Source: Anaerolineae bacterium (GTDB lineage: Bacteria; Chloroflexota; Anaerolineae; Anaerolineales; Villigracilaceae). From it: a stretch of DNA of 30,647 nt. A program made the translations under genes and the position numbers. This document shows, one piece after another, positions 26,195 through 28,747 of this stretch. Location: positions 1-30,647 of the forward strand of contig RFJH01000308.1 in the NCBI GenBank assembly GCA_003694975.1, given 5' to 3'. The notes beneath the pieces are model-generated. The model was not told where the DNA came from. It did no database searches and saw nothing but the letters and a program-made list of their open reading frames with translations. The number at the start of each line of letters is the position of its first letter. Position 1 is the stretch's first letter.

Positions 26195-28747
26195 GTGCAA
26201 CTGGATCAGGGTATTGCAGATCAAATGCTCGAACAGGCCGTCGCGGAATGCGCGCGGATGCATTTCGCGGGGGATATCCGCCGCGCGCGGCGTGCCATCT
26301 CCCAGGGACAATGTGAACACTGCAAATGCGTCGCCGATAGCCTGGTGCGTCAAATTGCCGAGTACCTGGGACAGGTAGATAGCACTGTGCGCGCCGTCTA
26401 CCAGTACGAACCGGCCGGCGAACCCCAGCGTTCAGGCAAAACACCTGAACACACAGGCATTCACTTCGTCCTGTGGGTAGAGCGCAAATCCGCCGCCCTG
26501 CATGCCCTGGTCGAGACATTCGAGACCATGCTCGCCAGAGGACAACGCGAACTGGGCTGTGCGCAGGCGTCCCCGCAATGCTACATGCTGGATATGCTCA
26601 TGATAGATGACCGCGACGTACGTGAGCATCGCGGCCTGGGGCTGCTGGCAGACTACCGTATCCTGCGCGCGCGCCCCGTCTGGCAACGACCTGAACACCC
26701 CGAACCTCCCCCTCCTCCAAAAACAGCCGCCTCACCATCACGACCACATCCCATCCTACCCGAAACGTTCGATCCTGACCTGATCCCCGAATCCCGGCTC
26801 ATCGAGCACGCTCTGGCGATTGAGCGCATGCCCCCCGAGGACCGCGCCGAACTGGAACACCGCCTGACCGAACTCAAGGTGACGCTGATCCGCCGCATGA
26901 TCAGCGATCAACTGACCTACATCAACGTCGCCAAAAAATGGTTCAGCGTGGCCGACCTGGCCGAAATCCTGCGCAGAAGGCTGGGGTTCGGGCGCATTGG
27001 GGGAAAAGCCGCCGGTGTGCTCCTCGCCGCTCGAATCCTGGATCAGGTCGCGGACGAGCGCCTGAAAGCATGCATCCACGTCCCCGAATCGTTCTTCCTG
27101 GGATCCGATTTGATGTACATCTTCATGGCGATGAACGGCCTGATGTACTGGAACGACCAGAAGTACAAACCGGAAGACCGCATTCGGGATGAGTACCCAC
27201 AAATCCAGGAGGAGTTCGCTGCCGGGGAGTTCCCACCGGAAATCGTCGTCGAGTTGCGCGCTCTGCTGGAAGAGATCGGGCCACACCCACTGATCGTGCG
27301 CTCCTCCAGTCAGTTGGAGGACAGTTTGGGGACCTCCCTCGCCGGAAAATACAACTCCTACTTCTGCCCCAATCAGGGCACTCCCGAAGAAAACCTGAAA
27401 GCGCTCACGAGAGCCATCGCACTCACCTACGCCAGCACGTTCAGACCCGATGCGCTCCTCTACCGCCGCCAGCACGGCCTGCACGATTACGACGAGCGCA
27501 TGGCGATATTAATCCAGGTCGTCCAGGGAGAACGGTGGGGACGTTACTACCTGCCCTTCGCTGCAGGCGTGGCCTTCAGTCACAATCTCTACCGCTGGGC
27601 ACCGCAAATTCGTCGCGAGGACGGCTTCGTCCGTCTCGTCTGGGGGTTGGGGACGCGCGCCGTGGAACGCGTCGGGGACGATTACCCCCGGCTGGTCGCC
27701 CTCAGTCACCCCACCCTTCAACCCGACGACTCGCCGGAAGCCATCCGCCACTACTCGCAACAATACGTGGACGTGATTGATTTGGAGGAGAACGCCGTCA
27801 AGACGTTGCCCATTCGCGAGGTATTGACCCCCCAATACCCCCCTCTGCGCTTCATGGTCCAACTCGAACGGGACGGTTACCTCAGCACGCCGCGCAGCCG
27901 CGTGCTGGAATCCGACCTCCCCAATCTGGTCATCACCTTCGATACTCTGCTGCGAAAAACCGATTTCCCCAAGAACTTGCGGGAGATTCTTCACATCCTG
28001 GAACGCCACTTCCGATCCGCCGTGGACGTAGAGTTCACCGCTCACATTACAGACCCCACCGCCGCCCGTCCGGACGTTCAGATTTCCATCCTGCAATGCC
28101 GTTCTCTGCCCAGCCTGCAAAGCGCATATCAGGCCACACTGCCGGAGGATCTTCCCGAAGAAGACGTTATCTTTTCCTCTCGCTTCCTGGTGCCGCGCGG
28201 TTACCTGGCGAATATCCGCTACGTGATTTTCGTGCCGCCGGAAAAATACTTCGCCTTACCCAACGCGGCAAGGCGCAATCAAATAGGCCGTATCATCGCC
28301 CGCCTGAACACCTCCCTGGACGAAAAGACCTTCATCTGCATCGGCCCTGGGCGCTGGGGGACGAGAAACGTAGACCTGGGTGTGTACGTGGGGTATGCCG
28401 ATATCTGCAATGCAGGCGCGCTCGTGGAACTCTCGGGCCAGGATGTCGGCCCGACGCCAGAACCTTCCATAGGAACCCACTTCTTCCAGGACCTGTTGGA
28501 AGCCCACATCTATCCCATCGCCGTCAACCTGGACAAAGAAGAGACCATCTTCAACCGCCGCTTCTTCTACGAGACTCCGAATCGCTTGAAAGACTGGATG
28601 GAAGTGGATGGCGAACTGGCCGAAAGCCTGCGCCTGATCGAGGTCGCCGCGTTCCGCCCCGGTCATCACCTGGAAATCATCATGGACGATGAAACGGGGC
28701 AGACGGTTGCCTTCCTGAAAGCCGACAGCCCCTCCTCAACGGGCTAG
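26195..28747 (+). CDS. PEP-synthase/PPDK-like ATP-grasp protein (paralog B) with extra N-terminal Cys-rich domain
   Basis: GTG start after GAGGTG; IGGKAAG, IVRSSSQLED, LAGKYNS, MAILIQ, AGVAFS, VWGLGTRAV, VDVEFT, ILQCR; C-terminal GPGRWG...GTHFF domain; ~165-aa N-terminal extension and Pro-rich linker. Confidence 0.88.
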   Translation: MQLDQGIADQMLEQAVAECARMHFAGDIRRARRAISQGQCEHCKCVADSLVRQIAEYLGQVDSTVRAVYQYEPAGEPQRSGKTPEHTGIHFVLWVERKSAALHALVETFETMLARGQRELGCAQASPQCYMLDMLMIDDRDVREHRGLGLLADYRILRARPVWQRPEHPEPPPPPKTAASPSRPHPILPETFDPDLIPESRLIEHALAIERMPPEDRAELEHRLTELKVTLIRRMISDQLTYINVAKKWFSVADLAEILRRRLGFGRIGGKAAGVLLAARILDQVADERLKACIHVPESFFLGSDLMYIFMAMNGLMYWNDQKYKPEDRIRDEYPQIQEEFAAGEFPPEIVVELRALLEEIGPHPLIVRSSSQLEDSLGTSLAGKYNSYFCPNQGTPEENLKALTRAIALTYASTFRPDALLYRRQHGLHDYDERMAILIQVVQGERWGRYYLPFAAGVAFSHNLYRWAPQIRREDGFVRLVWGLGTRAVERVGDDYPRLVALSHPTLQPDDSPEAIRHYSQQYVDVIDLEENAVKTLPIREVLTPQYPPLRFMVQLERDGYLSTPRSRVLESDLPNLVITFDTLLRKTDFPKNLREILHILERHFRSAVDVEFTAHITDPTAARPDVQISILQCRSLPSLQSAYQATLPEDLPEEDVIFSSRFLVPRGYLANIRYVIFVPPEKYFALPNAARRNQIGRIIARLNTSLDEKTFICIGPGRWGTRNVDLGVYVGYADICNAGALVELSGQDVGPTPEPSIGTHFFQDLLEAHIYPIAVNLDKEETIFNRRFFYETPNRLKDWMEVDGELAESLRLIEVAAFRPGHHLEIIMDDETGQTVAFLKADSPSSTG

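Follow-up and report, generated by a model that had tools for sequence, protein, structure and literature searches.

The minimal nucleotidyltransferases (MNTs; PF01909 NTP_transf_2 and PF18765 Polbeta), including 2rff, MntA (8xeh, 6m6v, and 7bxo), and HI0073 (1no5), share a core in which a long helix is followed by two antiparallel strands, a helix, and further strands, and their context is that of toxin–antitoxin systems. The GlnE domains and the AMPylation domain of DrrA/SidM (3k7d, 1v4a, and 3nku) are nucleotidyltransferase folds with preceding helices, and GlnE regulates an ammonium-assimilating enzyme, glutamine synthetase, by adenylylation. To our knowledge, the G[SG] turn and the carboxylates of strand 2 are required in the characterised nucleotidyltransferases. 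The DZF domains of NF45 and NF90 (4at7 and 4at8) are nucleotidyltransferase-like folds that no longer catalyse and are put to binding or regulatory use; the non-catalytic domains of NF45/NF90 are dimerisation modules. In the PII system with NtrB/NtrC, a small accessory protein that senses nucleotide and 2-oxoglutarate shares a genetic link with a kinase/regulator pair and with the genes of ammonium assimilation. Two dikinase-like proteins are encoded on either side of gdhA in an Anaerolineae genome, and we compared these systems with the extra N-terminus of one of them (paralog B), for which the present analysis accounts. The window, that is, the whole analysed stretch of 30,647 nucleotides (contig RFJH01000308.1), contains the following features at this locus.

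20681..22811, + strand: GAF histidine kinase (20681-22009) and OmpR-type regulator (22080-22811), assigned by Pfam
24680..26041, + strand: glutamate dehydrogenase (GDH) gene, directly upstream of paralog B (Pfam ELFV_dehydrog and ELFV_dehydrog_N)
26184..26197, + strand: GAGG Shine-Dalgarno-like motif (26184-26187) and GTG start codon (26195), read from the sequence
26195-28747, + strand: paralog B, a dikinase-like protein of 850 residues (translation)
26195..26692, + strand: N-terminal domain of paralog B, residues 1-166, of a family without a name (AlphaFold, fold and family searches)
26693..26758, + strand: Pro-rich linker, residues 167-188 (no ortholog consensus; pLDDT 65-73)
26759..26977, + strand: helical connector, residues 189-261, missing from paralog A, with many near-invariant columns
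26993..28156, + strand: PPDK_N ATP-grasp domain, residues 267-654 (Pfam PF01326, E 1.1e-49)

The GTG codon at 26195 is preceded by GAGG 7 nt upstream and by an in-frame stop three codons before it. The database copy of paralog B (P0001) starts at M11 (ATG 26225), and an earlier note on this DNA, made from the sequence alone, had allowed for a true start downstream of the N-terminal region. The orthologs conserve the N-terminal residues of paralog B (residues 2-10, kept as Q-[IL]-D-Q...T-D), which favours GTG 26195 as the start. The translation agreed with the six cysteines listed in that note (C19, C40, C43, C45, C122, and C129) and with its Pro-rich linker (P169-E-P-P-P-P-P-K176); residues 1-170 hold these six cysteines, and residues 171-850 hold five. 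The note had also described about 165 residues as missing from paralog A. They are indeed absent there, but the length was underestimated: the BLASTP alignment (29% identity) pairs B262-844 with A25-579, and thus about 260 residues are extra in B, comprising the domain (1-166), the linker (167-188), and the helical connector (189-261). The connector had no match in the Pfam search. The coordinates of PPDK_N were identical by genome search, and among solved sequences it is nearest to 5hv1 and 5fbs, both rifampin-phosphotransferase entries; neither a swivelling phospho-histidine domain nor a PEP/pyruvate TIM barrel was matched in paralog B by Pfam.

The N-terminal domain is an autonomous module and one copy of a previously unnamed family. 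It is kept from residue 2 on in 61 ortholog clusters of ~850 aa, and a profile search (E ≤ 1e-3) extended the family to at least 378 clusters. The bulk of the family consists of stand-alone proteins of ~185 aa (mostly 165-210 aa) from Anaerolineales and other Chloroflexota, labelled 'hypothetical' in the databases. Pfam and NCBIfam gave no match for the domain of paralog B, and Pfam at E ≤ 10 gave none for four family members or for a 202-aa piece. Profile searches of the PDB with the domain returned nothing significant, and a literature search found no publication on the domain family or the operon. The protein family defined here, with its at least 378 sequence clusters, has neither a Pfam model nor a name.

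The fold was predicted with two AlphaFold models, one of residues 1-202 of paralog B (pLDDT 84) and an independent one from stand-alone homologs (pLDDT 90). The elements of the domain are as follows.

26207..26302, + strand: two N-terminal helices, residues 5-23 and 28-36, with C19 in the first (DSSP on the model)
26312..26329, + strand: C40-x2-C43-x-C45 where helix 40-61 begins, with C40 and C43 as the first two members of a Cys quartet (model, alignment)
26387..26410, + strand: strand 1, residues 65-72 (VRAVYQYE), at the position of the hG[GS] strand, ending at E72-P73 (model, column counts)
26411..26458, + strand: variable loop, residues 73-88, in place of the GS turn/helix (pLDDT 69-71 in the blocks of residues 71-90)
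26459..26491, + strand: strand 2, residues 89-95 (IHFVLWV), with no DxD, followed by R97-K98-S99 capping helix 100-120 (model, column counts)
26558..26581, + strand: C122-x6-C129, the other two cysteines of the quartet, in the loop and short helix that follow helix 100-120 (model, alignment)
26588..26611, + strand: strand 3, residues 132-137 (LDMLMI), with conserved D133, followed by D138-D139 (model, column counts)
26666..26689, + strand: strand 4, residues 158-164, with invariant W163 and R165 at its end (model, conservation)

The predicted core runs helix (residues 40-61 in the first model), strand, loop, strand, helix, strand, strand, which is the core order of the MNTs at a similar size. 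The segments VRAVYQY, GIHFVLWV, and LDMLMI, read in the earlier note as a three-strand core, were beta-strands in both models (65-72, 89-95, and 132-137 in the first), and helix 100-120 separates the last two of them. The nucleotidyltransferase-like fold proposed there was also recovered by structure searches, as nucleotidyltransferase-fold proteins came first in both Foldseek and VIA-align with the two models. The best Foldseek matches of both models were MNT antitoxins, 2rff, GlnE, and ANT(9). The VIA-align Z-scores were 7.3/7.6 for 2rff, 7.0/6.3 for 8xeh_E, 6.3 for 1no5, and 6.0-6.1 for DrrA over residues 1-165, and nucleotidyltransferase-fold proteins made up 11 of the 12 top rows in one VIA-align search. 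The MNTs, the best structural matches to both models, aligned over 84-99 residues with up to 20% identity (16-20% for the MntA rows in the structure alignment). In agreement, a language-model search of the ESM Atlas returned the family itself first and then PF01909/PF18765 clusters at 0.95.

The Foldseek E values lay between ~6e-3 and 2e-2 and all Z-scores were below 8, so that no score was individually significant. The N-domains of the ribosomal protein uS3 also scored, at Z 5-5.8 on a portion of the model, so that proteins other than nucleotidyltransferases share the strand-helix arrangement. The hhalign comparison of the family with six MNTs of the same genome gave a probability of 0.6%, and only its forced global register, which is non-significant, mirrors the alignment in the earlier note. 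The predicted fold is closest to that of a Pol-beta-like minimal nucleotidyltransferase, with moderate scores and sequence profiles that are blind to the relation.

Compared with the MNTs, the domain lacks G[SG], DxD, a profile match, and a HEPN partner gene; a 16-residue loop replaces the GS turn; and two N-terminal helices, an R-K-[ST] motif, and a four-Cys site of one clade are added. The GlnE and DrrA/SidM folds align over the whole domain (residues 1-165), whereas the structural likeness to GlnE/GlnD is weak, with no Pfam match to either and no G-x11-D-x-D in the domain; moreover, GlnE is partnered with glutamine synthetase, and the domain with GDH and glutamate synthase. The DZF domains (Z ~4.4-5.4) come from eukaryotes, are much larger, and share neither sequence nor context with the domain. 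The likeness to PII is a functional analogy drawn from gene context alone, as the PII fold is entirely different and there is no sequence relation; the ligands sensed by PII are among those proposed below for the domain.

Conserved residues were counted per column over 155 sequences (47 fused and 108 stand-alone members), with the residue-level correspondence to the GS and DxD positions deduced from topology only. G[SG] and DxD were missing in all 155, so the loss reported for this one protein extends to the whole alignment, and the search for homologs with intact GS/DxD that the note had suggested found none among the best 150 of the 378 family matches. Strand 1 closes with Y-x-[YF]-[ED]-P in the fused proteins and with Y-x-[YF]-[DE] in the stand-alone ones. 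Strand 2 follows the pattern [GLP]-[IVL]-[HNS]-L-[IV]-[VI]-W without a carboxylate pair; position 90 is H, N, or S, and a single D occurs there in one divergent copy (L025). Since every member is without the GS turn and the two-Asp strand, which bind nucleotide and Mg in nucleotidyltransferases, the domain is, judging from these alignments, very probably no conventional nucleotidyltransferase. At positions 97-99, R, K, and S/T are each found in 46-47 of the 47 fused members, and the 108 stand-alone members carry R in 74, K/R in 97, and S/T in 99. The conserved acidic residues are E72, D133, D138, and D139. D139 is kept in 44/47 fused and 82/108 stand-alone members, and D133, a candidate counterpart of the third catalytic carboxylate on strand 3, in 40/47 and 85/108. 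Because several acidic residues are conserved, a non-canonical active site is conceivable.

Among the aligned fused sequences, C19 was found in 42/44, C40 in 40/45, C43 in 44/46, C45 in 32/47, C122 in 45/47, and C129 in 42/47, in agreement with the expectation that the cysteines are conserved in orthologs. C45, which had been counted in the Cys cluster, is variable and lies outside the conserved site; position 45 is Tyr in most stand-alone members, 62/108 of which have C19. The full quartet C40/C43/C122/C129 occurs in 40/47 of the fused and 18/108 of the stand-alone sequences and is confined to one clade (73 of 155 tips), inside which the fused clade is nested. The quartet is thus clade-specific and older than the fusion, and it is not the core function of the family because about half of the family is without it. 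A C-x2-C pair at a helix start together with a second pair is a common zinc-site geometry. The quartet is most likely a structural zinc site, predicted to pin the beginning of the first core helix to the loop that follows the second helix; the closeness of the four cysteines is deduced from the antiparallel packing of helices 40-61 and 100-120, on topology only. A few fused sequences have lost C40 and C129 jointly and retained C43 and C122. Of the earlier reading as a whole, the fold, the motif loss, and the Cys conservation were upheld, whereas the place given to C45 in the Cys site was not. We infer a sensory role for the domain, and responsiveness to metal or redox state may accompany it.

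The gene neighbourhood links the domain to ammonium assimilation, which is a functional link and not a mechanism. At all 18 fused loci in other genomes, the gene lies directly downstream of GDH (14/18) or of the FMN subunit of glutamate synthase (4/18). Stand-alone members were located in metagenomes with a search based on 11 close sequences, as a 54-sequence alignment was too diverse; a single-protein search of the genome contigs gave one locus only. GDH is directly downstream at 35 of the 50 stand-alone metagenome loci with enough downstream flank and upstream at one. A NuoE/NuoF/Fer2_4/HdrA-MvhD/FrhB cluster occurs at 13 of these 50, and in L025 and G881 the NuoE/NuoF-type cluster continues into GXGXG and Glu_synthase genes. 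Orthologs of the GAF histidine kinase/OmpR pair of this locus precede the stand-alone domain, with the regulator (~60% identical to the one here) directly upstream at 41/46 metagenome loci. No HEPN partner gene adjoins the domain, whose neighbours are GDH, glutamate synthase subunits, the histidine kinase, and the response regulator, and no dikinase-like gene lies within 4 kb at 80 stand-alone metagenome loci. Simple promoter and terminator scans and Rfam returned nothing in the gap between gdhA and paralog B, where a hairpin lies at 26060-26110. The association of the stand-alone domain with a kinase/regulator pair and with GDH or glutamate synthase fits a regulatory role in nitrogen assimilation.

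With its predicted nucleotidyltransferase-like fold, its lack of catalytic motifs, and its place next to genes for glutamate-making enzymes, the domain probably serves nitrogen assimilation in Anaerolineales as a regulatory module. In specific terms, we consider it somewhat probable that this autonomous nucleotidyltransferase-like domain is a non-catalytic regulatory module of ammonium assimilation that binds a small anion, with a likely zinc site in one clade. Its genomic partners are the enzymes that make glutamate from 2-oxoglutarate, namely GDH or the split, iron-sulfur-rich glutamate synthase. The small anionic ligand (candidates are nucleotide, 2-oxoglutarate, and glutamate) would be held by the conserved R-K-[ST] helix cap and the acidic residues. 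In paralog B, the flexible Pro-rich linker would tether the domain to the dikinase-like ATP-grasp protein, which the domain may control or aim, and the four-Cys site would be dispensable for the rest of the family. A more ambitious and only tentative version is that the domain is a pseudo-nucleotidyltransferase signal sensor and the third component of an undescribed nitrogen-control system of Anaerolineales/Chloroflexota. It would read nucleotide or 2-oxoglutarate/glutamate and signal to the GAF kinase/OmpR pair and, where fused, to the dikinase-like phosphotransferase, thereby setting the expression or activity of GDH and the iron-sulfur glutamate synthase. If so, the domain would play the role of PII/GlnD on an unrelated fold.

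The same neighbourhood could reflect docking, in which the domain would bind not a metabolite but another protein, be it GDH, glutamate synthase, or the GAF kinase/OmpR regulator, and in paralog B would bring the dikinase-like enzyme there. Such an adaptor would suit a gene that strictly adjoins those for GDH or glutamate synthase and for the two-component pair, and non-catalytic NF45/NF90 domains occur among the structural matches. However, GDH and the FMN subunit of glutamate synthase are structurally unrelated, and docking to both is therefore less economical than sensing a shared metabolite, so that we regard the adaptor as unlikely. Further from the preferred regulatory module is an atypical enzyme that modifies GDH, glutamate synthase, or a metabolite, for example by AMPylation in the manner of GlnE, with a non-canonical site made up of E72, H/N90, D133, D138-D139, and R97-K98. 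The family-wide conservation of acidic and basic residues is consistent with it, together with the weak whole-domain match to the AMPylator DrrA (131-138 residues aligned) and the weak GlnE matches (3k7d, E 0.028; 1v4a, Z 4.8). The uniform loss of the turn and both strand-2 carboxylates, including in the best 150 matches, makes this enzyme improbable.

The cysteines allow for a redox or Fe-S sensor, in which the four residues hold an Fe-S cluster or reversible disulfides and render the fused protein redox-responsive. Such a sensor would suit the proximity of the quartet clade to Fe-S-rich glutamate synthase clusters and NAD(P)H enzymes, and the joint loss of C40 and C129 is what paired thiols might show, yet the co-loss cases look closely related and may represent one or two events. 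Considering also that half of the family lacks these cysteines and that their arrangement matches zinc sites, we give the redox sensor little credence. The R-K-[ST] motif could instead mark a phospho-acceptor, with S99 phosphorylated by the attached ATP-grasp/phospho-histidine machinery or another kinase. Position 99 is S/T in 47/47 fused and 99/108 stand-alone members and follows basic residues, and the fusion partner is a phosphotransferase-type protein. In the model, however, S/T99 is precisely the N-cap residue of helix 100-120, which can account structurally for its conservation, and the 80 stand-alone metagenome loci lack a dikinase-like gene within 4 kb; a phospho-acceptor role is thus very improbable.

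Two other candidates were discarded. An antitoxin of the MNT toxin–antitoxin type was rejected on gene context. A system that replaces PII/GlnE was considered, as P-II and GlnE had no match in the source genome (88.6% complete), and was dropped because P-II-like matches were present in four of five related genomes carrying the domain. The control of ammonium assimilation in Chloroflexota is little known, and the strict gene context makes the domain a concrete candidate regulator. The family is also a further bacterial case in which a nucleotidyltransferase-like fold is put to another use and the catalytic motifs are absent. Besides its fusion to the dikinase-like protein, the domain is found fused to Fer4 and MvhD, and to a DksA/TraR zinc finger.

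The window derives from an Anaerolineales-type genome (completeness of 88.6%, contig C52), and its co-directional gene run consists of a GAF histidine kinase, an OmpR-type regulator, paralog A, glutamate dehydrogenase (GDH), and paralog B:

20681–22009 (+), GAF histidine kinase (Pfam)
22080–22811 (+), OmpR-type regulator (Pfam)
22808–24550 (+), paralog A, PPDK_N (Pfam)
24680–26041 (+), glutamate dehydrogenase (Pfam)
26195–28747 (+), paralog B, 850 aa, PPDK_N ATP-grasp (Pfam)
paralog B residues 1–166, N-terminal domain
paralog B residues 167–188, Pro-rich linker
paralog B residues 189–261, helical connector, strongly conserved

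A gene for a Peptidase_C39_2 and TPR protein (18428–20599, +) lies upstream of the kinase gene. The PPDK_N ATP-grasp domain (residues 267–654) was the sole Pfam match in paralog B, and residues 1–266 had no domain match in Pfam or NCBIfam. As residues 262–844 aligned with residues 25–579 of paralog A (29% identity, BLASTP), approximately 260 residues are particular to paralog B and have no counterpart in A. The extra region proposed in the earlier note was thus confirmed by BLASTP to be absent from A, but it is longer than the ~165 residues given there. Its six Cys residues and PEPPPPPK stretch were found in the translated protein exactly where they had been placed, with six Cys in the first 170 residues versus five in the remaining 680.

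Residues 1–200 matched 61 clusters of ~850-aa Anaerolineales proteins, all of which were PPDK_N proteins with the same N-terminus (39–59% identity). The database copy of paralog B (P0001, 840 aa) begins at M11 (ATG). Ortholog conservation begins at residue 2 (Q-[IL]-D-Q), GAGG is located 7 nt 5' of GTG 26195, and an in-frame stop lies three codons upstream of it. The conserved residues 2–10, the GAGG, and the stop indicate that GTG 26195 is the correct start and favor the longer form over M11 (26195–26224 being the added segment); the N-terminal region is, as had been supposed, a real part of the protein. The domain is autonomous and conserved. Searched with a family profile, 1.84 billion representatives yielded at least 378 clusters at E ≤ 1e-3, most members being the domain alone (165–210 aa). 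Its distribution is patchy: it was present in 3 of 201 genomes from the same family, in 39 of 401 from the order, and in 4 of 401 across the phylum. The family is without a name in Pfam or NCBIfam, and no paper on it was found in a literature search.

What is new here is that, family-wide, this domain is tied to enzymes that form glutamate and also to a dedicated two-component system: it is strictly linked genetically to two unrelated 2-oxoglutarate-to-glutamate enzymes and to one two-component pair. The stand-alone context set comprised 80 metagenome loci, all of the Cys-less type. An OmpR regulator ~60% identical to that of the window was directly upstream of the domain in 41 of the 46 loci with enough upstream sequence, and the kinase before it gave near-full-length matches at 38–48% identity. 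GDH was directly downstream on the same strand in 35 of the 50 loci with enough downstream sequence, and upstream in one; in 13 of the other 14, NuoE-, NuoF- (sometimes a GltD-like fusion), Fer2_4-, HdrA/MvhD-, and FrhB-like genes came next. In locus L025 and genome G881, the NuoE/NuoF/FrhB-type cluster is continued by genes for GXGXG and Glu_synthase (FMN), the two parts of a split glutamate synthase. As no dikinase-like gene was present within 4 kb at any of the 80 loci, the domain works without a dikinase partner. In 14 of 18 loci from other genomes, the fused form immediately followed GDH (78–83% identical to that of the window), and in the other four it came directly after the gene for the FMN subunit of glutamate synthase; the GDH-then-B order was likewise observed in locus L001 and genome G540.

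Several individual loci extend this picture. In G881 (L132:9-7582, +), NuoF-like, Fer2_4, HdrA/MvhD-like, FrhB-like, GXGXG, and Fer4+Glu_synthase(FMN) genes are followed by a stand-alone domain with the Cys quartet (C40/C43/C122/C129), the one such copy with visible context, and a GntR/FCD regulator; the cluster looks like a multi-subunit, Fe-S-rich glutamate synthase plus a module for NADH input. In L025 (4555–6339, +), a second domain copy directly 3' of the stand-alone one is fused to a 4Fe-4S ferredoxin (Fer4) and MvhD/FlpD (hhalign probability 99.9), and FrhB-like, GXGXG, and Glu_synthase genes come after the fusion. An additional tblastn match just 3' of GDH in L101 (~6000–6400, +), besides the copy before GDH, places the domain on both sides of GDH in that contig. 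Two tandem copies share one 363-aa frame in genome G806 (L134:5147-6235, +), with ORFs resembling the GAF kinase and OmpR regulator directly after, so that the domain precedes the two-component pair. In database protein P0128 (315 aa), a coiled-coil-like stretch joins the domain to a DksA/TraR C4 zinc finger (Pfam E 1.5e-10), suggesting a tie to transcription control. Genome G045 carries a weak, Cys-poor homolog (L022:9262-10527, +; E 4.5e-10) beside a C39-TPR gene like that of the window, with no GDH nearby; this could be a relic of the locus.

An AlphaFold2 model from the ortholog alignment (model 1; pLDDT 84, pTM 0.74) consisted of helices 5–23, 28–36, and 40–61, strand 65–72 followed by a low-confidence loop, strand 89–95, helix 100–120, strand 132–137, two short helices, and strand 158–164. 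The three segments previously named from sequence correspond to its first three β-strands. Foldseek against the PDB ranked minimal nucleotidyltransferase (MNT) antitoxins at the top (8xeo, E 6e-3, probability 0.99), followed by the GlnE adenylyltransferase domain, ANT(9), and NF90/NF45. The all-against-all VIA-align search gave 2rff (Z 7.3, 96 residues aligned), MNT 8xeh_E (Z 7.0), HI0073 (Z 6.3), and the DrrA AMPylation domain (Z 6.1 and 5.9 across residues 1–165), then 1ylq, ANT(9), ANT(4'), Rel, and LinB, with GrpB, Pol beta, and GlnE lower; no score reached individual significance on the tools' own scales, Z 7–8 being usual for the top match of a model without a clear relative. A model from stand-alone homologs only (model 2; pLDDT 90, pTM 0.83) recovered 2rff (Z 7.6), MNTs (Z 6.3–6.4), and DrrA (Z 6.0). 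MntA rows reached 16–20% identity, and ribosomal uS3 N-domains gave Z 5–5.8 across ~80 residues at 4–8% identity. An ESM Atlas feature search returned unnamed Chloroflexota clusters of 171–189 aa, then PF01909/PF18765 clusters at 0.95. Sequence-profile searches (Pfam, PDB profiles, and hhalign against MNTs of the same genome) gave no link to nucleotidyltransferases. The predicted nucleotidyltransferase-like fold, top-ranked with moderate scores for both models, is well supported but not proven.

The loss of GS and DxD noted in paralog B was family-wide in the 47 fused and 108 stand-alone sequences read. G[SG] after strand 1 was found in 0 of 155, with [ED]-P or an acidic loop instead, and the carboxylate pair was absent from strand 2 ([GLP]-[IVL]-[HNS]-L-[IV]-[VI]-W). 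No member with intact motifs occurred among the best 150 of at least 378 family matches. The window's genome has ten canonical MNT matches (PF01909; contigs C322, C314, C180, C109, C90, C246, C348, and C121), and both motifs were intact in the six extractable frames; motif loss is thus specific to the domain's own family. Conserved instead are D62, R97-K98-[ST]99, A101-L102, D133, D138-D139, G147, W163, and R165. R97-K98-[ST]99 caps helix 100–120, and such basic residues with Ser/Thr where a strand passes into a helix would be fitting for a putative anion-binding site.

C19 and the quartet were kept in ~90% or more of the fused proteins, as the earlier note expected of its Cys cluster; C45, which it had included, was variable (32 of 47 fused sequences; usually Tyr in stand-alone members) and lies outside the conserved site. 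The quartet was complete in 18 of the 108 stand-alone members and mostly missing in the others. In a midpoint-rooted FastTree phylogeny (155 tips), all quartet-bearing sequences fell in a single clade of 73 tips with the fused clade nested inside, which, on sequence phylogeny, makes the site older than the fusion and dispensable to the family. C40/C43 start helix 40–61 and C122/C129 follow helix 100–120 in model 1; as these helices pack antiparallel in such a fold, the four Cys are expected to lie near one another in space. A putative structural zinc site is the simplest reading, with an Fe-S cluster or thiol switch as the rival. C40 and C129 were lost jointly in a few fused sequences, apparently close relatives.

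The earlier interpretation is supported in part, by the predicted fold, the lost motifs, and the Cys conservation in orthologs; a sensory role is putative. The domain probably descends from MNTs and, by its predicted fold, would work like them; since it lacks the defining motifs and profile links, it is not filed as a member enzyme, and it comes closest to a non-catalytic module with a nucleotidyltransferase fold. Its likeness to GlnE/GlnD or PII is one of gene context only. Because GDH and glutamate synthase have substrates in common but unrelated structures, the sensing of a common metabolite or nucleotide signal is a likelier role for the domain than docking onto the two enzymes; rival roles are a protein adaptor, an atypical enzyme, an Fe-S/redox sensor, or a phospho-acceptor. 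As a signal reader, the stand-alone domain would modulate either the kinase/regulator pair or the enzymes that form glutamate. When fused in paralog B, where its linker to the ATP-grasp protein is flexible, it would gate or direct that dikinase-like phosphotransferase.

A strong hairpin (26060–26110, +) lies 20 nt 3' of the gdhA stop and ~85 nt 5' of the B start (26045–26135: MFE −40.2 kcal/mol, z −4.3), with a C/U-rich tract after it and no Rfam match. Orthologous GDH–B intergenic regions (L107, L108, L110, L111, L112, L114, and L117) share a long palindrome whose arms, GGTGTCAAT...ATTGACACC, are conserved, with one compensatory variant in L117. The hairpin could be an RNA attenuator, a processing site, or a palindromic operator.
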